Positions 6,126 to 34,615 are shown, counted from the first letter of the stretch. The stretch is DNA of 64,000 nt from an uncultured Acidobacteriota bacterium (GCA_963700145.1 OY969474.1:3936001-4000000); one strand, 5' to 3'. The notes: generated by a model from the letters alone, not told the origin. Numbers and translations: made by a program.

Positions 6126-6196
6126 ATGCGAAGAACGTCCAGACCAACCTCAAGGCGGGAGCTAGGTACGTGGTCATCGACTGGGGGATGGGTTGA
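6126..6196 (+). pseudogene. Peptide copy 1, frameshifted right after ATG (would read MAKNVQTNLKAGARYVVIDWGMG)
   Basis: GAGGAGG RBS + ATG 6126; the conserved VQTNLKAGAR frame is out of phase with the ATG, and adding one G (ATG-G-CG) restores it. Confidence 0.6.
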
Positions 6197-6236
6197 TGAA
6201 GGGCGACCTAATCCCAGCGGAGGGAGGTGAAAAGCG

Positions 6237-6302
6237 ATGAAAGTTCAGACCAACCTCAAGGCAGGCGCTAGGCACCAGATCATCGACTGGGGGATGGGTT
6301 GA
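6237..6302 (+). CDS. Small peptide copy 2, MKVQTNLKAGARHQIIDWGMG
   Basis: GGAGGTGA RBS, ATG...TGA, homologous to the neighbouring copies. Confidence 0.8.
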   Translation: MKVQTNLKAGARHQIIDWGMG

Positions 6303-6341
6303 TGAAGGGCCACATAGTTCAGTGAAGGGAGGTGAGAAGCG

Positions 6342-6401
6342 ATGAAAGTTCAGACCAACCTCAAGGCGGGCGCTAGGCACCAGATCATCGACGTCGGGTA
6401 G
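6342..6401 (+). CDS. Small peptide copy 3, MKVQTNLKAGARHQIIDVG
   Basis: GGAGGTGA RBS, ATG...TAG. Confidence 0.8.
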   Translation: MKVQTNLKAGARHQIIDVG

Positions 6402-6435
6402 TCCCAGGCTGTCCACGAAGGGAGGTGAGAAGCGA

Positions 6436-6495
6436 ATGAAAGTTAAGACAAACCTCAAAGCGGGAGCTAGGCACCAGATCATCGACTTCGGGTAA
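6436..6495 (+). CDS. Small peptide copy 4, MKVKTNLKAGARHQIIDFG
   Basis: GGAGGTGA RBS, ATG...TAA; mostly synonymous differences from the other copies (ACA/ACC, AAA/AAG, GGA/GGC). Confidence 0.8.
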   Translation: MKVKTNLKAGARHQIIDFG

Positions 6496-7806: not shown

Positions 7807-8014
7807 TGTTCCGTCGTCGAGCTCATCCGACGGCATGGCCCCGGGAGCCAAGCTGGTGCTGCAGGGCACCGGCTACCAGGTGGACAAATGAGTGCTCTGC
7901 GAGCCCGTCGTCTGCCCCGGCACGCTCTTCGGTTCCCATGGCACTCCTCTCCAAGGAGGGGCTGGAGCTCGCCGCGGCCCTGGAGAAGGTGGCGTAACGC
8001 CCGCCGGAAGCCCC

Positions 8015-8300
8015 GGAATATCCCTGCGCGACCTGCAGACGCCCCGGCGGAGCCTCCTAATGTCCTCCCGGGACCTCGGAACCTGTTGCGCGCCCTCCGG
8101 AACCTCCTGCGCGACGCCGGGAATCGACTGCGCGACGCCGGGAATGGGTTGCGCGCGCTGCGGAACCTCCTCCGAGCCGCTCGGAAAGGGTCCCCGGCGC
8201 TCCGCAACCTGTTCCCCGGCCCGCGCAACCCATTCCCACGCTCCGGGGGAGGGTTCCGGAGCCGCCGCAGGACGTTCCACGCCTCCCGCAGGCCATTGGC
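8015..8300. repeat. 21-bp-period degenerate palindromic array A
   Basis: Units at 8078, 8099, 8120, 8141, 8162, 8183, 8204, 8225, 8246, 8267 with G[G/C]AA-N4-TT[G/C]C-like cores. Confidence 0.8.
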
Positions 8301-8578
8301 CGCCGCGCGCCGGCCGATCGCCGCCGCTCGGCGGGCGTCGCGGAGCGTCGCACCCTCAATCCCTAGGACGAGACCCAACCGCCGCGGAGACCGGCTGCCC
8401 GGGGGAGTCAGGTCCAAGGTGACGGGCGACGACGACTTCTGACGCCCAGAGCATGATGTCCAGATTCTGGACGGCGGTTGGTGGTGGCCGGCACCTTCTT
8501 TGCAGTTTCGCACCAACCGAGATTGGGGCGGCAGCCATCGCGGGGGTTTACCGCGCCGAATTCGCAGGAGGAATTCAC

Positions 8579-12486: not shown

Positions 12487-12569
12487 AGCGAAGACCGCGG
12501 CGGCGGAAGACCTCTCCACGTCCTCCTCAGAGGTCGCCGGAAGGCTTCCGGGCGCCTCCCCGGGGCCTG

Positions 12570-12779
12570 CGGATGTATCCGGAAGGCGGGCGGATCTATC
12601 CGGAAGAGCCGCGGATCTATCCGGCGCGCCTGGGGATATATCCGGCGCGCCTGCGGATGCATCCGGAAGCGCTGCGGATGTATCCGGAACGCCCGCGGAT
12701 ATATCCGGAAGCGCCGCGGATGGATCCAGAGGGGCCGCGGATGGATCCGGAGGCGCCCCGGATACATCCGGACGTCTCG
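12570..12779. repeat. 21-bp-period palindromic array B (10 units)
   Basis: CGGAT-NN-ATCCG core + 9 variable nt, exactly every 21 bp from 12570 to 12759. Confidence 0.9.
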
Positions 12780-12806
12780 CTCCCTTATCCCCAGCCGTTC
12801 CGACCG

Positions 12807-14171
12807 GGATGTGTCCCGATTCTTGTGGAGATTCGGCGTAACCCCCTGACTGTCGGGTTGACGTTAGCTCCTCACGCGGCCTGCGTCCAAATCGTGGCGA
12901 GGAAACGTTGCAGGTCTTGGTGGCCATTGACGCTGCGTAGGCGGATCTGGCCGCAGGCCACCAGTGCCCAGAGCAGGGTCAAGGCCGCCTCTTCGGTGGC
13001 GAAGCTGGCCTGGGTCTTGGTGCGGCGTCGAAACTCGCGATGGAGGTTTTCCAGCGCGTTGGTCGAGCGTAGGGTCCTCCACAGCGAGCGGGGAAACTCG
13101 TAGAAGGTCAACAGCTCCTCTCCGGCCTCCTCGAGCGAGCGGGCGACAGCCGGACACAGGCGAGACCACTTGGCGAGGAAGGCCGCGTAGGCCTGATGGG
13201 CCGCCCCACCGTCGCGGGCCTCGACGATCGGGCGCCAGTCGCGCCGGAGCTCGCCGCGAGCATGGCGCGGGCAGTGCTCCAGCAGGTTTCGGAGCTTGTG
13301 CTGGGTGCAACGCTGCACGCGCACCCCCGGCCACGCCGCCAGCGCCTTGCGCAAGCCAGCGTGGCCGTCGACGATGAGCAACTCGGGCGCCGCCAAGCCC
13401 CGCCGCTGCAGATCCTCGAGCAGCTCGCCCCACAGCCGCGCCGCCTCGCTCGTGGCCAACCGTAACGCCACCAGGACCTTGCCGCCATCGGGGCGCACGC
13501 CCAGAGCGGCCAGCACCGGCACCGCCACCACCCGCCGGGCCAGCCGCACCTTGACGTGGAACCCGTCGAGAAACAGCAGCGCGTAACGCTCGCCCGCACA
13601 ATCGCGCTCCCGCCAGGCCGCAAACCGCTCTTTGAGCCGCCCCACCACGCGCGAGGCCGCGCTCTTGGACAGGTGCTCTTCTCCCAGCAGCGGCGCCAGC
13701 GCCTTGCCGATCCGTCGGCTATTGGCCCCCGCCAGATAGCACGACAGGATCGCCGCGTCGATCTCCCGCACCCGCCGCGCGTAGCGCGGCACCAACGCGC
13801 TGGCGAACTCTTCCGTCGTGCCCTCCACTGTGGCCACCCGACCGCGCGGCACCCGCAGCGGCCGGGTCCCCGCCACCGTCGTCACCCGCCGTAGCGTGGC
13901 TCCGTTGCGGTAGCCGCGGCGCACCGCCGTCCGCTCGTAGGGCTGCGCACCCAGCGCCTCCTGAAGCTCCTGCTCTAGCACCAGCTCCACGGCCTCCAGA
14001 AGCCTCTGCTCGAGCAGCCGCCGGATGTCCTGGCGCAGCGGCACCACCTCCTGCTCTGACGTGCTAGCCTCCCACATGGCGTAACCCTCCTCCGCCGCCC
14101 ACGCGACGGGATGTGCTTGACAGCTAGGAGGTTACGCCACTTTCTTTTTCCACAAGAATCGGGACGGATCC
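12807..14171 (-). mobile_element. IS256-family insertion sequence (1365 bp)
   Basis: Terminal IRs GGATGTGTCCCGATTCTTGTGGA / GGATCCGTCCCGATTCTTGTGGA; 8-bp target duplication TCCGACCG at 12799-12806 and 14172-14179. Confidence 0.93.
12872..14077 (-). CDS. IS256-family (Mutator-type) DDE transposase
   Basis: GYRNG, LRVPRGR, LFLDGF, IVDGHAGL, VQRCTQHKLRN, RSTNALENLHREFRRRTK. Confidence 0.95.
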   Translation of the reverse strand: MWEASTSEQEVVPLRQDIRRLLEQRLLEAVELVLEQELQEALGAQPYERTAVRRGYRNGATLRRVTTVAGTRPLRVPRGRVATVEGTTEEFASALVPRYARRVREIDAAILSCYLAGANSRRIGKALAPLLGEEHLSKSAASRVVGRLKERFAAWRERDCAGERYALLFLDGFHVKVRLARRVVAVPVLAALGVRPDGGKVLVALRLATSEAARLWGELLEDLQRRGLAAPELLIVDGHAGLRKALAAWPGVRVQRCTQHKLRNLLEHCPRHARGELRRDWRPIVEARDGGAAHQAYAAFLAKWSRLCPAVARSLEEAGEELLTFYEFPRSLWRTLRSTNALENLHREFRRRTKTQASFATEEAALTLLWALVACGQIRLRSVNGHQDLQRFLATIWTQAA

Positions 14172-27961: not shown

Positions 27962-29077
27962 TCACGGCACTGTCGCCTGCGTCTCGGGCCCGGCCTCGCT
28001 CTCGTTGCCCTGTTGGTCGACGGCGGTGACGCGGTAGGTGTAGGCGCGGCCGGCGGCGACGTCGGTGTCGCTGTACTCAAGGGCGGCGAGCGGCTCGGCG
28101 GTGAGCTTGCGCCAGGCGCCGGCGCCTTCGCGGCGGTAGACCAGGTAGCCCGCGAGGTCGGCGGCGGGGCTGGAGCGCCAGACGAGGCGCACCCGGCCGC
28201 TCTCGGCGAGCGCCACGAGGTCGGCCGGCGGCGGCGGCGCGAAGCGGTCGAGGTAGCGCACCTCGCGCTCGGCCTGGACGGCGCTCTCGACGAGCGGCGC
28301 GGTGCGCCCGACGCTGGTGACGGCGTAGATGTAGCTGGCGCCGAAGGCGGCGGTGGTGTCGAGGTGGCGGGTGGCGGTGGGCGGCAGGGTCGCCAGCGGC
28401 TGGCGGCCGTCGCGCGCCGTCGCCTCGCGGCGGTAGACGTTGAACCCCTTGACCGCCTCGCCGCCGTGCGACGGCGGCCGCCAGGTGATCTCGATCCCCT
28501 CGGCGGTCGGCGTGACGTTCAGCTCCTCCGGCGCCGGCGGCGGCGCCTGGGTCACCAGGATCGCCTGGTTGGAGATCGCCGAGCGGTCCCCCTCGGGCCC
28601 GACGGTGCGGACGACGTAGTGGTGCGCCACCGGCCCCTCGGCCGGCACCGGCGGCGCCGGCAGGCGGAGGAGCAAGCGGTCGCCGGCGGCGGCGGAGGCC
28701 AGCTCGGGCCCTTCGAGGCGGAGGAGGAGCTTGGCGGCGGCCTCGAGCTGCCGCGGGTCGAGCGGCGGCGGCTCTCCCTCGCGCGGCGCCGGGCGCACCG
28801 CGTCCCAGACCTCGAGGGCGCTGAGGCCGCCGAGCAGGACGCCCGCCGGCGTCGTCTGCGGGTAGCCGAGCTCGAAGAGGAGCTGCGGGCCGCGCTGCAC
28901 GACCGTCAGGTCCTGCGTCGGCGCCGGCACCATGCGCAGCGGCGGCGCCGGCGGGCCCTCCTTGCCGCAGGCGGTGAGGGTGAGCAAGAGGCAAGCGACA
29001 ACCGCTGTCGCGCCACCCTGCCCCCAGATCCCTCGCTCACGCTCGGGATGACAATGGTGGCCGTTCGTGCGCTTCAA
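27962..29077 (-). CDS. Lipoprotein with LptM-like N-terminus (CGKEGPP) and Fn3 domains
   Basis: TTG start overlaps the hslU stop; lipobox LTAC; Fn3 motifs [22 protein letters not shown]. Confidence 0.8.
29021..29052. repeat. Single arm of the same REP/RPE element inside the lipoprotein 5' coding region
   Basis: CCCCCAGATCCCTCGCTCACGCTCGGGATGACA, nearly identical to the arm at 27916-27946. Confidence 0.75.
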
Positions 29078-30468
29078 AGCACGTACCGGGAGAGGTCCTG
29101 GTCCTGGACGATGTCGACCAGGGCCTTGCGCACGTAGGCGCCGTCGACGGCGAGCGTCACGCCCGCCATGTCGGGGGCGCCGAAGGAGACCTCGTCGAGC
29201 ACCCGCTCCATCAGCGTCGCCAGGCGCCGCGCGCCGATGTTCTCGGTCGCCGAGTTGACCTCGACCGCCAGCCGCGCCAGCTCGGTCACCGCGTCGTCGG
29301 TGAAGGAGAGCGACAGGCCCTCGGTCGAGAGCAGCGCCGCGTACTGCTTGGTGAGCGCGGTCTCGGGCTCGGTCAGGATGCGCACGAAGTCGTGCTCGGT
29401 CAGGGCGTCGAGCTCCACGCGGATGGGGAACCGCCCCTGCAGCTCCGGGATCAGGTCCGAGGGCTTGGAGACGTGGAAGGCGCCGGCGGCGATGAACAGG
29501 ATGTGGTCGGTCTTGACGACGCCGTACTTGGTCGAGACCGTCGTCCCCTCGACGATCGGCAGCAGGTCGCGCTGCACCCCCTCGCGCGAGACGTCCGGGC
29601 CGCGCGAGCCTTCGCGGCCGGCGATCTTGTCGATCTCGTCGAGGAAGATCATGCCGCCCTGCTCGACGCGGTGGCGGGCCTCGCGCGCCACGGTGGCGCG
29701 GTCGATCAGCTTCTCCGACTCCTGCTGGTGGAGGATCTCCTTGGCCTCGGCCACCGTCACCTGCTGCTTCTTCTTCCGCCCGAAGAGGCCGGGGAGCATG
29801 TCCTTGACGTTGATCCCCACCTCCTCGACGCCCTGCGGCGTGAACATCTCCATGCTCGGGAAGCTGGCGTCGTCGACCTCGATCTCGACGTGCCGCGCGT
29901 CGAGCGCCCCCGAGCGCAGCTTGGCGCGGAACTTCTCGCGCGTCGCCGACAGCTCGTCGAGGTCCTCGTCGCTCTCGCTGCGCAGGTAGCTCGACACCGG
30001 CCGCGGCGGCACCAGGAGCTGGAGGAGGCGCTCCTCGGCGTTCCTGGCGGCGGCCTCGCGCACCGCCTCGCGCTTCTCCTCGCGCACCATGCCGACGGCG
30101 ATCTCCACCAGGTCGCGCACCATCGACTCGACGTCGCGCCCGACGTAGCCCACCTCGGTGAACTTGCTCGCCTCGACCTTCATGAAGGGCGCCTTGGCGA
30201 GCTTGGCCAGGCGGCGGGCGATCTCGGTCTTGCCGACGCCGGTGGGGCCGATCATCAGGATGTTCTTGGGCGCGATCTCCTCGGCGATCTCGGGCGGCAG
30301 CTGCTGGCGCCGCCAGCGGTTGCGCAGGGCGATCGCCACCGCGCGCTTGGCGTCGTGCTGGCCGACGACGTACTTGTCGAGCTCGCCGACGATCTGCCGC
30401 GGCGTCATGTTGTCGAGGGCGCCGGCCTGGGCGTCGCCGGCGGGGTGCCCCTTGAGCTCGAGCGACAT
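29074..30468 (-). CDS. hslU: ATP-dependent protease ATPase subunit HslU
   Basis: [46 protein letters not shown]. Confidence 0.97.
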
Positions 30469-30471
30469 GGC

Positions 30472-31020
30472 CTAGAGCTCCTCGACCGTCAGCTGCTCGT
30501 TGGTGAAGACGCAGATCTCGGCGGCGATGCGCATCGCCTCGCGCACGATCTCGGCGGCGTCGAGCTTCGTGTGGCGCAGCAGGGCGCGCGCCGCGGCGAG
30601 GGCGAAGTTGGCGCCGGAGCCGACCGCCAGCACCCCGTCCTCCTCGTCCGGCTGCAGCAGCTCGCCGGTGCCCGAGACGTAGAAGCTCTTCTCCTTGTCG
30701 GCCACCAGGAGCATCGCCTGGAGCTGGCGCAGGGCGCGGTCGGTGCGCCAGTCCTTGGCCAGCTCGACGACGGCGCGCTCGAGGTTCCCGCCGAACTCCT
30801 CGAGCTTGGCCTCCAGCCGGGTGAAGAGGGCGAGGGCGTCGGCGCCGCCGCCGGCGAAGCCGACCAGCACCTTCCCCTTCCCCGCCCGCCGCACCTTGCG
30901 CGCGCTCGCCTTGACGATGGTGTTGCTGTTCATCGTCACCTGGCCGTCGCTCGCCATGCACACCTTGCCGTCGCGGCGCACCAGGAGCACGGTCGTCGAA
31001 TGGAAGGTAGACGTGTCCAC
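30472..31020 (-). CDS. hslV: ATP-dependent protease subunit HslV
   Basis: [35 protein letters not shown]. Confidence 0.97.
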
Positions 31021-31089
31021 GGGGGAGGGATTCTAGCGCGGGGCTCGCGGGAGGCCCGGGAAGGGTGGCGGAACGTCCCCCAGAGGCCC

Positions 31090-31400
31090 GGGAGATGCCC
31101 CGGCGCGGCCTGGAGATCCCCCGGCGGAGCCCGAGATGTCCTCCCGGAGCCTCGGAATGTCCTCCGCAGCCCGCGGAATGCATTCCCAGCGGCCGGGAAT
31201 GTATTCCGAGGCGCCGGGAATCCATTCCGAGCGCGGCGGAATCGATTCCGAAGCCCTGGGAATCTATTCCGAGCGCCCGGGAATCGATTCCCAAGCGCTC
31301 GGAATCCATTCCCAGGCTCCGGGAACCTATTCCGAAGCCTCGGGAGCTCATCTCCCACGGCTCGGAGGCGATCTCCAGCGGCTCGCGGGAGCCTCCCGCC
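31090..31400. repeat. 21-bp-period palindromic array C
   Basis: GGAAT-NN-ATTCC core + 9 variable nt every 21 bp (31154-31342), degenerating at both ends. Confidence 0.9.
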
Positions 31401-31480
31401 GCTCCGGGGCCGAGCCGGACCCCTGAGTCCAAGCCAGTTTGACGCGAGGTACGCCTCTGGCGTACGGTGTGCCGGGGCCG

Positions 31481-31798
31481 ATGCTCCTCATCGAGACCGC
31501 GGTCTTCACGCGCCGGGTGCAGGCGCTCCTGCAGGACGATGAGTACCGTCTCCTTCAGCTCCACCTGGCCGGGCAGCCGGATGCCGGGCCTGTGATCAAG
31601 GGCGCCGGCGGCTTGCGAAAGGCACGCTGGTCGGTTGGAGCACGCGGCAAGCGCGGAGGCGTACGGGTGATCTACTACTGGGCGAAGCCACAGGATCGCA
31701 TCCTCATGCTGTTGATCTACTCGAAGGCTGAGCGCGACGACCTCACCAGGGCTCAGATAGGAATTCTGCGAAAGATCGTGGAGGACGAGTATTCATGA
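31481..31798 (+). CDS. RelE/HigB-2-like toxin
   Basis: IETAVF, GGLRKARW, GKRGGVRVIYY, LLIYSK. Confidence 0.9.
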   Translation: MLLIETAVFTRRVQALLQDDEYRLLQLHLAGQPDAGPVIKGAGGLRKARWSVGARGKRGGVRVIYYWAKPQDRILMLLIYSKAERDDLTRAQIGILRKIVEDEYS

Positions 31799-32097
31799 AG
31801 CAGGAGTTGTTCTCCGAGTTGGTTGAGAGCGTTCGCGAGGGTGGCGCCATTCTCAAGGGCAAGGCGAAACCGTCACGGGTCTTCGAGGTGAAGACGCCGG
31901 AGGTTCGGGAGATTCGGGAAGCCTACGACCTCTCGCAAGCCGAGTTCGCGGCATTGCTCGGCATCAGCGTCGACACCGTCCAGAACTGGGAACAGGGTCG
32001 GCGCATGCCTGCCGGGCCGGCAAAGATCCTCCTGCAGGTCGTCGCCAAGCACCCCGAGGCAGTCTGGGACGTCGTAAGACCAAAGCAGACAGCGTGA
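31795..32097 (+). CDS. HigA-like XRE HTH antitoxin
   Basis: LSQAEFAALLGISVDTVQNWEQGRRMPAGPA; ATGA overlap with the toxin. Confidence 0.9.
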   Translation: MKQELFSELVESVREGGAILKGKAKPSRVFEVKTPEVREIREAYDLSQAEFAALLGISVDTVQNWEQGRRMPAGPAKILLQVVAKHPEAVWDVVRPKQTA

Positions 32098-32101
32098 AAC
32101 T

Positions 32102-32185
32102 GTGGAATTCCAGCTCGATGACGCCCTGGAGATTCTGGCGCGGACGCCTGCCGCGCTCGCCGGCCTGCTCGACGGCATCGGCCCG
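32102..32185 (+). pseudogene. Truncated 5' 28 codons of a DinB-family gene
   Basis: 77/84 nt identical to 34085-34168 (counted by hand). Confidence 0.85.
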
Positions 32186-32342
32186 TGCGTTATCGGTTCG
32201 AGAGCACCGCTGCGCTCCAAGCTATGTGCAGAGATCCGGATACTTCTTCAAGCGTTGACAGCCTCTCCTGCCCACCAATAGACTTCCCAGTAGAAGAAGC
32301 GCGAGCTACGCACGGCACTTTTGAGTTCCATCAGGGGGCAAA

Positions 32343-32759
32343 ATGCGTGAAGCCAAGCTCTTTGACTCACATGGTTTCGTCGTCACAACGGAGCGGTTCG
32401 TCTACGGCTCCAAGGTCGTGCCACTAGCCGAAATCACAATCGCTATGGCAAACATCATCCGAGGTTGGGCCGCCTTGATCATCGCTGTAATCGGTATAGG
32501 ACTGGTTGTATGGGGCGGAGTTCTCTTGAAGATCCTGGGTCTAGGCTTGCTACCCGTAGCCTATCTCGTCTTTATTCGGATGACCGAACGCCTAGTCGTT
32601 GTGGCAACTAAAGATGGCAAGTTCATGGAGTTCAAAGTCGAAACAACCGAGCTGCTCGAAAATGTAGTAGGAGCTATCAACAATGCGCTCCGGGACCGGC
32701 AGAGAGCCCACGCAGCAAATCTGCGGGCCGAACTCGATAGCCTTCCAAGTGTGAGGTGA
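32343..32759 (+). CDS. DUF6232-like two-TM membrane protein
   Basis: VVTTERFVYGSKVVPLAEIT + two TM segments + VVGAINNAL; lower GC than flanks. Confidence 0.7.
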   Translation: MREAKLFDSHGFVVTTERFVYGSKVVPLAEITIAMANIIRGWAALIIAVIGIGLVVWGGVLLKILGLGLLPVAYLVFIRMTERLVVVATKDGKFMEFKVETTELLENVVGAINNALRDRQRAHAANLRAELDSLPSVR

Positions 32760-32792
32760 CAGACTATTTACCAAAGTGGATAGGAGATAACC

Positions 32793-32936
32793 ATGGCAAA
32801 GGGCAAGAAGTGCCCGCAATGCGGCCATCAGATGTATGCTATATCTGAGGATCATCAGCCAAAAGGAACATGGGTGGTGTACGAATGCCGGAATGGTAGC
32901 TGCAAGTTTCAAGAGAAAGTCTTTGAAGGCCGATAA
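32793..32936 (+). CDS. Small zinc-ribbon protein (47 aa)
   Basis: AGGAG RBS; MAKGKKCPQCGHQM...YECRNGSCKFQEKVFEGR (CxxC...CxxxxC); below the ORF-track cutoff. Confidence 0.75.
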   Translation: MAKGKKCPQCGHQMYAISEDHQPKGTWVVYECRNGSCKFQEKVFEGR

Positions 32937-32970
32937 GGTCGGATAGGCTGATCGGCAAATTGAGGCGCCT

Positions 32971-34032
32971 ATGGGCAGGGCTGAAGACATCTTTGAGCGG
33001 ATCTCGCTGGAAGGCGAGGCAGCTATAGACGAATTCATCCTGACGCGAAAGTCCGAGGAGCTCTTCCTTGACTTTAAACGATCGGCGGATGAGGGCAGTG
33101 CGGGCCACTTACACCAAAACGACCGCAACAATCTAGGACGAGCTATATCCGGCTTTGCAAACTCCGAAGGCGGTGTAATCGTCTGGGGCGTGGACTGCCG
33201 CCCCGGACCAGGCGGTGCAGATGTTGCTCGATTCAAGTTCCCTTTAGTCGATAGCGCGGCGTTCGCAAGCTGGCTAGAGAGCGCTGTGTCAGGATGTACC
33301 ATGCCAGCCTGCACCGGCGTTCGAAGCATTTCCATAGCAGGGAATGAAGACGCCGGATTCGCCGCCACCTACATTCCAAAGAGTGCCCGCGCTCCTCATC
33401 AGGATCTAGCCAGGGGCGGTTACTATATCCGGGCAGGTTCGGACTTCTTGCCGGCTCCCTATGGTGTGCTTGCCGGTCTATTTGGGAAGCGTCCTGAACC
33501 CTTCGTGTTCCACCAGCTCTACATTGAGAAATCGATCCAGATCTCCTCTCAAGAGTCGGCTGTCGATGCGGTCGTTGGATTTGTTCTCGTCAGTGACGGC
33601 CCGGGAATCGCACGAGATCTCTTCATGAGCTTGGATCTCCTCCATCCTGGCGGAAAATCGTCATTTTTCCTGGAGCACACTCACGAGACCATCTTTGACT
33701 ACTATCACCACTTCGGTATTCACCTGAGCGTGATCAGCAAGGACGGCTTCAAGCTTCCCCCTGGTGGGCGAATCCACGTCCTCACCATTAAGATTCATCT
33801 CGTTCCACCTTTCACAGGCGATGGTCTCTATCTCAACTTAAGCTACGGTTGCTCCGGAGCGCCGACAAGGCAGAGAACACTCACGCGCGAGGCAACCACG
33901 TTAGAGCGGCTTTGCCGAACAATCGGAGGCTTGCCGAGCGAGGAGAGGAATGCGTTTTTCATAAGCGAGTTTCTCGGGGAACTCGGGCCAGGGGAACTCA
34001 CCGAAAGGTCACCGATGGTTGGGGAGAGGTGA
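32971..34032 (+). CDS. Schlafen/AlbA_2-domain protein with unknown C-terminal domain
   Basis: SEELFLDFK, ISGFANSEGGVIVWGV, PHQ, YYIRAGS. Confidence 0.85.
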   Translation: MGRAEDIFERISLEGEAAIDEFILTRKSEELFLDFKRSADEGSAGHLHQNDRNNLGRAISGFANSEGGVIVWGVDCRPGPGGADVARFKFPLVDSAAFASWLESAVSGCTMPACTGVRSISIAGNEDAGFAATYIPKSARAPHQDLARGGYYIRAGSDFLPAPYGVLAGLFGKRPEPFVFHQLYIEKSIQISSQESAVDAVVGFVLVSDGPGIARDLFMSLDLLHPGGKSSFFLEHTHETIFDYYHHFGIHLSVISKDGFKLPPGGRIHVLTIKIHLVPPFTGDGLYLNLSYGCSGAPTRQRTLTREATTLERLCRTIGGLPSEERNAFFISEFLGELGPGELTERSPMVGER

Positions 34033-34084
34033 TGCAGCGGCTTCCGGTGGGGCCGGGAGTTCTAACCCGGGGATCTGGCTAGCC

Positions 34085-34615
34085 GTGGAATTCCAGCTCG
34101 ATGACGCCCTGGACGTTCTGGCGCGGACGCCCGCCGCGCTTGCGGGGCTGCTCGACGGGATCGGCCCGGGGTGGCAGGGGGCGAACGAGGGGCCGGAGAC
34201 GTGGAGCCCCGTCGACGTCCTGGGGCACCTGATCCACGGCGAGGAGACCGACTGGGTGCCGCGCGCCCGGATCATCCTCGAGCGGGGCGAGGCGCGGCCG
34301 TTCGATCCGTTCGACCGGTGGGCACAATTCACGCGTTTCGAGGGCTGGTCGCTGCCGGCTCTCCTCGCCCGCTTCGCAGAGTTGCGCGGCGAGAACCTGG
34401 CGACGGTCCGCGGCTGGAACCTGACGAGCGAGCAGCTCGACCGCCGCGGCCGCCACCCGGAGCTCGAGATGGTCACGCTGCGCCAGCTCCTCGCCACCTG
34501 GGTGGTGCACGACCTCGATCACGTGGCGCAGATCGCGCGCGTCATGGCCAAGCGCTACGCCGCGGACGTCGGCCCCTGGGAGAAGTACCATTCGATCCTG
34601 CGAGACCGCCGATGA
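34085..34615 (+). CDS. DinB/YfiT-family protein
   Basis: TWSPVDVLGHLIHGEETDW, TWVVHDLDHVAQI. Confidence 0.9.
   Translation: MEFQLDDALDVLARTPAALAGLLDGIGPGWQGANEGPETWSPVDVLGHLIHGEETDWVPRARIILERGEARPFDPFDRWAQFTRFEGWSLPALLARFAELRGENLATVRGWNLTSEQLDRRGRHPELEMVTLRQLLATWVVHDLDHVAQIARVMAKRYAADVGPWEKYHSILRDRR

Follow-up and report, generated by a model that had tools for sequence, protein, structure and literature searches.

Dispersed 21-bp palindromic repeat arrays in an Acidobacteriota genome and their relation to a small gene module

An array of 21-bp units lying beside hslV in the genome of an uncultured Acidobacteriota bacterium (array C) was found to belong to a family of dispersed extragenic repeats, of which the literature searched, subscription journals excepted, gave no description; the earlier note on this DNA, made from the sequence alone, had likewise stated that no named element of this form was known. 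Three arrays (A, B and C) lie in the window, by which is meant the whole stretch of 64,000 nucleotides analysed and to which all positions refer unless a genome position is given. Each carries relics of the flanks of a gene module in which an array separates a small gene X from a gene Y, and all three derive from that X-array-Y module. The identification of Y, often accompanied by a DCoH-like X, as a gene partner of such arrays is new here. Array C itself is an orphan copy of one such spacer (A-type), the inner units of which have been re-homogenised to GGAATNNATTCC.

Arrays in the window

The core of array C (31154..31345) consists of about nine units of 21 bp, each made up of GGAATNNATTCC followed by a G+C-rich 9-bp spacer. 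Exact copies of GGAATNNATTCC were found at seven positions (starts 31175, 31196, 31217, 31238, 31259, 31280 and 31301) and an eighth core with one mismatch at 31322; every step is 21 bp and the cores together span 31175-31333. By chance, 0.35 occurrences of GGAATNNATTCC would be expected across the window, and a count of eight was attained by no shuffle out of 100. Tandem Repeats Finder (TRF) reported a period of 21 over 31092-31345. The GGAAT-NN-ATTCC palindrome at a 21-bp phase, as first described, is therefore present, while the original count of nine clear units was slightly generous, there being eight clear units and further degenerate ones. The degenerate units extend on the left over 31040..31153, as defined by alignment with eight A-type copies, and on the right over 31346..31400 (GGGAGCTCATCTCCC, GGAGGCGATCTCC), as defined by direct reading together with the A-type alignment. 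The left side of the array (31040-31100) was found to preserve, in decayed form, the 3' end of module gene X; it shares homology with the left end of A-type elements, and blastn matches begin at 31040.

The 9-nt segments between the palindromes, which had been taken as independent variable spacers, share a consensus and are 62-76% conserved; array C is thus an ordinary tandem repeat with a better-kept palindromic part and not a repeat-spacer array, and a CRISPR array, which would have unique spacers, was rejected. When single-stranded, array C is predicted to fold as long inter-unit stems and not as separate small hairpins, with folding z-scores of -6.8 (RNA parameters) and -7.0 (DNA parameters). 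No Pfam family was matched by the open reading frames running through the array, and a known RNA family was rejected as a candidate, as the Rfam search of the window returned no match at gathering score.

The region of array C (31090-31400) lies between the start of hslV on the minus strand and a plus-strand gene pair. The hslV gene (30472..31020, minus strand; PF00227, E = 1.4e-21) is transcribed away from the array and is followed by hslU (29074..30468, minus strand; AAA_2, E = 1e-37). The pair on the other side comprises a candidate RelE-like toxin gene (31439..31798, plus strand), whose match to PF06296 is weak (22.4 bits against a cut-off of 27), and a candidate HTH_3/MqsA-like antitoxin gene (31795..32097, plus strand; PF01381, E = 1.3e-10). 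Contigs from two public RNA runs cover only parts of hslVU and none lies over array C; one RNA contig was seen to stop about 30 bp beyond the start of hslV and to continue in a manner unlike the window. In two DNA runs the contigs listed halt at array C and none spans it, a practical effect of such arrays being that they break short-read assemblies.

Array A (approximately 7966..8368) belongs to the A-type: it extends over about 400 bp, its 21-bp units are decayed, and about 284 bp of it are homologous to array C (70% identity). Its period of 21 agreed with the earlier description, whereas the palindromic core ascribed to it did not: its units are not palindromic, and those of the left half (GGAACCTnnTGCGCG) are instead the reverse complement of those of the right half. 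At its left edge, 19 codons from the 3' end of gene X survive as a relic (7938..7997, plus strand; …ELELAAALEKVA, stop).

Array B (12564..12772) was found as had been described, with 10 units of CGGATNNATCCG plus spacer. It is preceded by a leader of decayed units (12495..12563) which is common to all five B-type copies and matches the X-side flank of the B-type array linked to a Y gene, and it is followed by the start of the B-type tail (12773..12810, end approximate), where homology to the four other tails stops beside an IS256-family element. The transposase gene of that family occupies 12872..14077 on the minus strand (PF00872, E = 1e-86). Past the tail, the DNA shares 100% identity with that flanking another array locus, which also has an adjoining IS256-family transposase gene, and a PIN gene lies about 1.6 kb from array B.

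Genome-wide census, placement and symmetry

TRF was run on the whole source genome (a single contig of 5.46 Mb with 71.5% G+C), where period 21 accounted for 554 of 1930 rows. Among rows with at least four copies, 114 had a period of 21, compared with 4 of period 18 and 3 of period 24, and none of period 19 or 23. Merging of the arrays with a period of 20-22 and at least four copies gave 115 arrays with a median length of 217 bp (interquartile range 175-250 bp) and about 10 units each, the best period being 21 in 98, 20 in 16 and 22 in one; the dispersed family proposed from the arrays of the window alone was in this way supported across the genome. More than 30 unit types were distinguished. 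Clustering by blastn grouped the arrays into clusters of 62, 22 and 12, by single linkage with 200-bp flanks included, so that flanking repeats may chain clusters together. Core motifs were almost confined to arrays (10 of 10 occurrences of GGAATNNATTCC, 78 of 87 of GGAAGCTTCC, 26 of 29 of GGAGATNNATCTCC and 11 of 11 of GTACAAGCGTAC), and for most motifs the count outside arrays was near that expected from base composition.

The placement of the arrays was assessed against 4052 genes (84% coding) called with a crude gene caller written for the analysis. Overlap with predicted CDS was below 10% in 106 of the 115 arrays, so that the intergenic placement noted in the window holds genome-wide; tandem repeats of periods 9-30 were 88-97% inside CDS. 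Flanking genes were convergent at 33 arrays, divergent at 31 and co-directional at 51, and since all gene-orientation contexts are occupied the arrays as a class are not promoter elements. Convergent pairs were mildly over-represented (33/115 arrays vs 124/612 intergenic gaps longer than 300 bp). When read by eye, arrays were often seen to abut stop codons and to stay some distance from start codons.

The earlier placement of the arrays at the edge of accessory regions was supported by base composition, as the lower-GC 1.5-kb flank was below 0.64 GC at 26/106 arrays compared with 138/1206 other intergenic regions (p = 3e-4). Proximity to toxin-antitoxin (TA) loci, which had also been claimed, held for array C (weak RelE and HTH_3) and for array B (the PIN gene), while the genome-wide enrichment was weak (TA genes within 1.5 kb of 10/106 arrays vs 57/1206 controls, p = 0.06). 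IS256-family transposase genes adjoin five arrays, array B included, and IS3-family genes adjoin three. Six of the arrays with no shown gene partner were observed to adjoin a small ORF family ending in …GRLVIRAV, which is putatively SymE/AbrB-like.

The symmetry of the units was compared with that of shuffled units. Complementary arms of at least 5 bp were present in 53 of 102 arrays (15.3 expected) and arms of at least 6 bp in 29 (3.7 expected), while in about half of the arrays palindromes did not exceed the chance level. Dyad symmetry of the whole unit (at least 8 of 10 pairs) was found in 20 of 83 period-21 arrays against 1.9 expected; in these fully dyad-symmetric arrays a dyad axis occurs each 10.5 bp and the entire array is one long quasi-palindrome. 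Together with the concentration of best periods at 21 and 20, this bears out the argument that the arrays are phased with the helix. Among 25 arrays aligned on the dyad, conservation among units was highest in the arms (0.87-0.94), lower in the two central nucleotides (0.79-0.82) and lowest in the spacer (0.62-0.76), and the positions next to the palindrome centre were 80% A/T. Autocorrelation of W/S gave peaks at lags 21 and 42 only: there was no signal at 10-11 bp that would indicate 10.5-bp AT phasing, and a heptamer substructure (21 = 3 x 7) was rejected, as values at lags 7 and 14 were at or below background.

The arms were also examined for the level at which they are constrained. In 48 palindromic arrays, the 2837 arm-pair cells comprised 2212 Watson-Crick, 189 G·T, 168 A·C and 268 other pairs. 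In co-directional arrays oriented by the upstream gene, 79 wobble cells were on the sense and 88 on the antisense strand, and there was accordingly no sign of G·U tolerance in a transcript. Changes in the arms relative to the array consensus were one-sided in 586 cases and compensated in 47 (27.8 expected under independence). The lack of a sense-strand G·U excess, taken with the fixed 20-21-bp period, favours a constraint acting on double-stranded DNA. The processed RNA array offered as one option in the earlier note finds no support, given the same lack of G·U bias and the shared consensus of the 9-nt segments, which are not independent.

The X-array-Y module and its relatives

Alignment of array C with eight blastn relatives showed the A-type arrays to be copies of a single segment of about 400 bp, homologous to one another position by position. 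The copies start within the 3' end of gene X, of which between 5 and more than 70 codons are kept, their ends are variable, and in three copies the segment reaches the ribosome-binding site and start of gene Y. B-type arrays share the leader (about 75 bp) and a tail of about 100 bp, and in the intact B-type copy this tail extends as far as the ribosome-binding site of a Y paralogue.

Gene X encodes a Pterin_4a/DCoH protein (PF01329; 51.9 and 37 bits in two paralogues), and five of the six PF01329 matches in the genome lie within such modules. The Y protein, of about 130-140 amino acids, was assigned to no family in Pfam, PADLOC, PHROG or NCBIfam. Its predicted structure comprises one short helix, one helix of 70 residues and a disordered proline-rich tail, and the model matched none of the solved folds against which it was compared. 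Atlas matches of Y were solely to unnamed Acidobacteriota clusters, and a profile search returned 527 cluster representatives at an E-value of 0.001 or below. One named close homologue bears a Thermoanaerobaculia name.

A TRF array was located 30-135 bp upstream of 14 of the 16 Y genes (15 of 16 when a decayed A-type array at genome position 3106813 is counted), compared with a baseline of 97 of 4052 predicted genes with an array within 400 bp, and gene X often precedes the Y-linked array. The Y-linked arrays mostly differ in unit type, those at 3.20 and 3.89 Mb both being of the GAGATnnATCTC type. Five closely related modules are arranged alike: an HTH_Xre gene and a gene for a 260-aa protein come first, followed by X, the array and Y, then, in three of the five, by a gene for a 137-aa protein, and finally by one for a 247-aa protein. 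In all five the array occupies the interval from the X stop codon to the Y ribosome-binding site, with both genes on one strand. In two modules the HTH proteins are 98-99% identical to the query, while the arrays are of different type and the Y proteins are 57% identical. The variable centre of the module is therefore made up of the array and Y, and the HTH protein is unlikely to be the specificity factor. Away from Y, flanks matching those of the module were found at 10 of 102 arrays, leaving about 90 arrays with no shown link to the module.

The distribution of Y was examined in other genomes. Y was present in all five other genera of the family searched and was not found in any of 147 genomes representing 16 further families of that class. 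In three of the other genera, 16 of 30 Y homologues had an array of period 20, 21 or 40-43 no more than 1.5 kb away; for the two of these genera represented by a genome sample (G006 and G010), the background density of such arrays was 2-6 per 400 kb. The array was directly upstream of Y in only 2 of these 30 loci, and in G006 it was downstream in five of seven. Array density was 8.4 per 400 kb in the source genome, 6 in G010 and 2 in G006; a same-genus genome (G004, about 95% identical) had 15 arrays in 770 kb, four of which look coding, and three genomes lacking Y (G025, G026 and G028) had 1 (which looks coding), 0 and 1 per 400 kb. Non-coding arrays are accordingly frequent in the four sampled genomes of the family, and of the class genomes examined this family alone was seen to have both Y and such arrays. 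The co-occurrence of Y and arrays across these few and related genomes is suggestive.

Further afield, two GGAATNNATTCC cores placed 21 bp apart were found at a minimum of 123 loci when one genome per species was counted. Among the loci listed were 21-bp arrays of about 5-12 copies (roughly 100-260 bp) in records of Verrucomicrobiota, Treponema, Geomesophilobacter, Bacteroidales, Spirochaetota and Thermoanaerobaculia. A Thiotrichaceae MAG, which contributed many of the listed matches, was rejected as an example, as it carries the same palindrome at periods of 22 to 35 bp, indicative of REP-like variable linkers and not of the 21-bp rule.

Turnover of the arrays was assessed by comparison with relatives, principally G004, whose syntenic blocks are mostly 91-98% identical to the source genome. 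At the hslV slot, array C is kept in G004 with one unit more; in G003 (85% identical here) an array is in the same place, with its arms shifted from GGAAT/ATTCC towards CGCAAT/ATTGCG and with hybrid units; and in G001 and G002 other DNA lies upstream of hslV. Eleven non-coding slots were compared between the source genome and G004, with counts made partly by eye on account of the noise of the automatic typing (which resolved 10 slots, mislabelled decayed arrays and included two slots, 2336696 and 2394387, that are probably coding repeats). An array was present in G004 at 8-9 of the 11 slots, with the same unit type at 4-5 and with flanks conserved around a clearly different type of unit at 3-4 (for example 4114700, 3395432 and 4025762), and the array was lost or shrunk at two. 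At slot 4009411 the edge units are kept and the inner units have turned over, with both symmetric variants (GGAAAGCTTTCC and GGATAnnTATCC) and hybrids present. A source-specific segment (at least 1 kb, relative to G004) lay within 300 bp of 5 of 7 arrays compared with 27 of 75 controls (p = 0.10), which is suggestive for so few arrays. Turnover is fast against close relatives, and the arrays evolve in concert.

Candidate explanations and comparison with known systems

The explanation that we tentatively prefer, at rather less than an even chance, is that the arrays are DNA-level, helically phased binding platforms which evolve in concert. The units would present twofold-symmetric sites every two helical turns (dyads each 10.5 bp in the fully symmetric arrays), and this recurrence would place all sites on one face of the helix. 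They would be occupied cooperatively by a dimeric or oligomeric protein, for which X, Y or the HTH protein of the module are the first candidates. The DCoH dimer has a saddle-shaped sheet that has been likened to that of TBP, which would make X a candidate binder. With more than 30 unit types, and with about half of the arrays having no palindrome above chance, a single sequence-specific binder cannot serve all arrays. Weighing against this reading are also the mostly one-sided changes in the arms (586, with 47 compensated), the roughly 90 arrays with no shown link to the module, the position of the array directly upstream of Y in only 2 of the 30 loci of other genera, and the structure of Y, a long helix and disordered tail without a match among solved folds. 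Unit sequences would drift and then be homogenised through unequal exchange and ectopic conversion. As a whole array amounts to a long quasi-palindrome it can form long hairpins, which may render it break-prone and recombinogenic, and this in turn would explain the replacement of unit types in place, the adjoining strain-specific DNA and the IS insertions. The protein-loading platform named as an option in the earlier note thus gives the best fit to the geometry and to the conservation of the arms, with the binder itself putative; the recombination hotspot named beside it gains indirect support from in-place replacement of unit types, neighbouring IS or strain-specific DNA and the potential for long hairpins.

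A less probable account, though one that deserves serious consideration, is that the arrays are selfish or neutral minisatellites of no use to the host, in which hairpin-favoured slippage and template switching amplify units, ectopic conversion spreads arrays which then persist where insertions are tolerated, and the 21-bp period is inherited from an ancestral array. Much of what was observed fits such an origin: the occupation of every gene-orientation context (33/31/51), the enrichment beside low-GC or atypical DNA, the blastn clusters of 62, 22 and 12 (with links that flanks may chain), decayed edges around homogenised interiors, the retention, replacement or loss of arrays when genomes of about 95% identity are compared, variable flank pieces on the copies, and a majority of arrays with no shown gene partner. 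It accounts poorly, however, for periods sharply restricted to 20-21 and their multiples, for the narrow range of lengths (interquartile 175-250 bp) given that tandem arrays delete easily, for a threefold better conservation of arms than of spacers, accompanied by few compensated changes, and for the strong association with Y genes (14-15 of 16). The conservation of the arms, for its part, could also arise from preferential amplification driven by hairpins, with no host function. The related option of a non-autonomous mobile repeat is borne out only in part, in that arrays spread together with pieces of their flanks, and is opposed by variable ends, the lack of a RAYT gene and the fact that terminal inverted repeats were not seen.

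Binding platforms are also to be weighed against a role at the RNA level, which we consider improbable, whereby hairpins in an X-array-Y message or in 3' untranslated regions would set the stability or translation of the flanking cistrons, as E. coli REP sequences between malE and malF do. The same-strand succession of X stop codon, array and Y ribosome-binding site in five modules, the tendency (by eye) of arrays to abut stop codons at a distance from starts, and the strong RNA folding (z = -6.8) are all in keeping with it; yet there is no sense-strand G·U excess (79 vs 88), the 20-21 period is left without a reason, divergent gene pairs flank 31 arrays and convergent pairs 33, arrays in other genera occupy no set place with respect to Y, and Rfam gave no match in the window. 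Distinctly less probable again is a purely structural element that absorbs or insulates supercoiling between transcription units, as a cruciform or through curvature and with no dedicated protein. AT-centred palindrome cores in a 71.5% G+C genome, the recurrence of dyads each 10.5 bp in a quarter of the arrays, the long-hairpin potential and the mild excess of convergent pairs (33/115 vs 124/612) would suit this, but half of the arrays are not palindromic, W/S autocorrelation peaks at lags 21 and 42 alone with nothing at 10-11 bp, and the AT tracts are of mixed type.

Scarcely credible is a coding heptad repeat or a CRISPR-like array. The 21-bp unit does equal seven codons, and open frames run through the arrays; stop-free frames, which the earlier note had remarked on, carry no weight at 71.5% G+C, where they are expected. 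Conserved heptad-coding genes, named there as what would overturn the reading, were not what was found: coding is ruled out for the 16 arrays of period 20, 106 of the 115 arrays lie outside predicted CDS, and the frames through array C have no Pfam match. Against a CRISPR-like array stand the shared consensus of the 9-nt segments and the size of the units, CRISPR dimensions being far larger than 12 + 9 bp.

A broader extension of the binding-platform reading, which is speculative and which we consider unlikely as a whole, would make the arrays the cis half of an undescribed chromosomal accessory module. A DCoH-like X and/or the long-helix Y would assemble on some ten phased dyad sites and build there a defined nucleoprotein body about 200 bp long, each module would have its own specificity, with protein and array co-diversifying, and orphans such as array C would act as recombination-prone landing pads that steer the entry of strain-specific DNA; the phased arrays of other phyla would then represent the same physical solution reached with other proteins.

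Bacterial intergenic repeats (REP, BIME and MITEs) are a decades-old discovery, but both what they do and how they spread are for the most part unsettled. To these the present family adds a physical rule, namely a period fixed at two turns and, for many of the arrays, a dyad axis once per turn, irrespective of sequence. With Y and a DCoH-like X as gene partners, the reader of the arrays can be sought directly with three small proteins and their own DNA. If the arrays recruit proteins or provoke recombination, they may help to explain where accessory DNA and IS elements settle in soil Acidobacteriota.

In geometry the arrays are like plasmid iterons and repeated centromeres (F sopC, R1 parC, and the R6K and P1 iterons), which are tandem direct repeats at whole helical turns, some with internal inverted repeats, and along which a small DNA-binding protein is loaded in many copies, all on the same side of the helix. 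The period of 20-21 bp found here is likewise a whole number of helical turns. The arrays differ from those plasmid elements in occupying 115 chromosomal loci and in that protein binding is putative. Neither Rep nor ParA nor ParB genes were found beside the arrays examined, the neighbours being hslV, a TA pair, HTH_Xre, a Pterin_4a-like protein and others assigned to no family.

REP/BIME elements are described as short tandem extragenic palindromes, some with flanking DNA, and include CGTC-tagged classes with no dedicated transposase (Di Nocera et al. 2013, PMC3733652). The arrays resemble REP/BIME clusters, and especially the BIME-2 of Proteobacteria (PMC3733652), in being tandem extragenic palindromes in tens to hundreds of copies, many of them downstream of genes and sometimes with bits of flank reiterated along with the units; the extragenic location that characterises REP was found for 106 of the 115 arrays. 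A GTAG or CGTC tag was seen by eye in some unit types only, CGTC standing beside GGGAAAG-type and some CGGAT-type cores and being absent from array C. A search for the RAYT gene (Y1_Tnp, PF01797) gave no match in the source genome, while the control search was positive in 6 of 14 reference genomes. Unlike REP/BIME, the family has no singletons or dimers, its motifs occurring almost only in arrays, its units are shorter (palindromes of 12-16 bp) and keep a strict 20-21-bp period, and dozens of array-specific cores take the place of one or a few consensus sequences.

The BrickBuilt MITE of Porphyromonas gingivalis has tandem units of about 23 nt with no unique spacers, is always intergenic and is present in about 19 copies per genome (Klein et al. 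2015, PMC4596501). It shares with the present family the tandem intergenic units and, in the B-type arrays, the possession of a leader and a tail (PMC4596501). In contrast to the one unit sequence and small terminal inverted repeats given for BrickBuilt (PMC4596501), more than 30 unit types and variable ends were found here, no terminal inverted repeat or target duplication being noticed by eye, and the arrays are further set apart from BrickBuilt by their palindromic units and by their link to a gene module.

Gene content of the module and small open reading frames near arrays

The module in which a DCoH-like gene and a gene for a helical protein flank an array was found in five copies in G000, the genome that holds the window (L226, at 3385500-3390000, L227, L224, L225 and L228). 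The gene order is HTH_Xre, a 260-amino acid protein, the DCoH-like protein, the array, the helical protein, a 137-amino acid protein (in 3 of the 5 copies) and a 247-amino acid protein; one copy, L227, carries an extra protein of 315 amino acids. Apart from the HTH protein and the DCoH-like protein, no module protein had a Pfam match above the family cut-off, nor was any PADLOC, PHROG or NCBIfam family matched.

A family of small ORFs with the C-terminal sequence …RLSGRWLRAAGF..EVEVRxGRLVIRAV, which judging by this motif may be SymE/AbrB-like, was identified near 6 arrays in G000. At five of the six arrays (ORFs at 3498961-3499419, 2879972-2880310, 4187615-4187992, 5154798-5155151 and 1630867-1631283) the stop codon lies 26-310 bp from the array.

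Separately, a 94-106-bp unit is present in 3-4 tandem copies at 6128-6494 of the window. Every copy includes an ORF of 21 codons, MKVQTNLKAGARHQIIDWGMG (taken from the TRF consensus of the repeat), together with a ribosome-binding site; judged from sequence, these units may be tandem precursor-peptide genes.

Surroundings of array C and insertion sequences beside arrays

In G004, the same-genus relative, the copy of array C is followed directly on its right by a partial hslU duplicate of approximately 90 bp (L002, 2610-2700) and then by a truncated copy of the toxin-antitoxin pair, both recognised by eye against the window sequence. In the window, the region right of the toxin-antitoxin pair (32100-34100) is a low-G+C stretch that encodes a Schlafen AlbA_2 protein and a DUF6232-like protein, the latter with a match below the cut-off; this stretch is absent at the corresponding place in G004.

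IS256-family transposase genes directly adjoin five 21-bp arrays in G000, and a further three are adjoined by IS3-family genes. Such adjacencies lie at approximately 12810-14150 of the window and at 4650558-4651790, 5154988-5156028, 1826585-1827595 and 3577427-3578374 of G000. The 21-bp arrays may be favoured IS insertion targets.

Palindrome loci in a Thiotrichaceae genome

In one Thiotrichaceae MAG (records L013-L092), the palindrome CGGAATNNATTCCG, with a TTGGAGTA tag, occurs in tandem at dozens of loci among the matches listed, with periods of 22, 25, 28, 29, 30, 32, 34 or 35 bp. From their sequence, these loci look like a REP-like element co-amplified with variable linkers.
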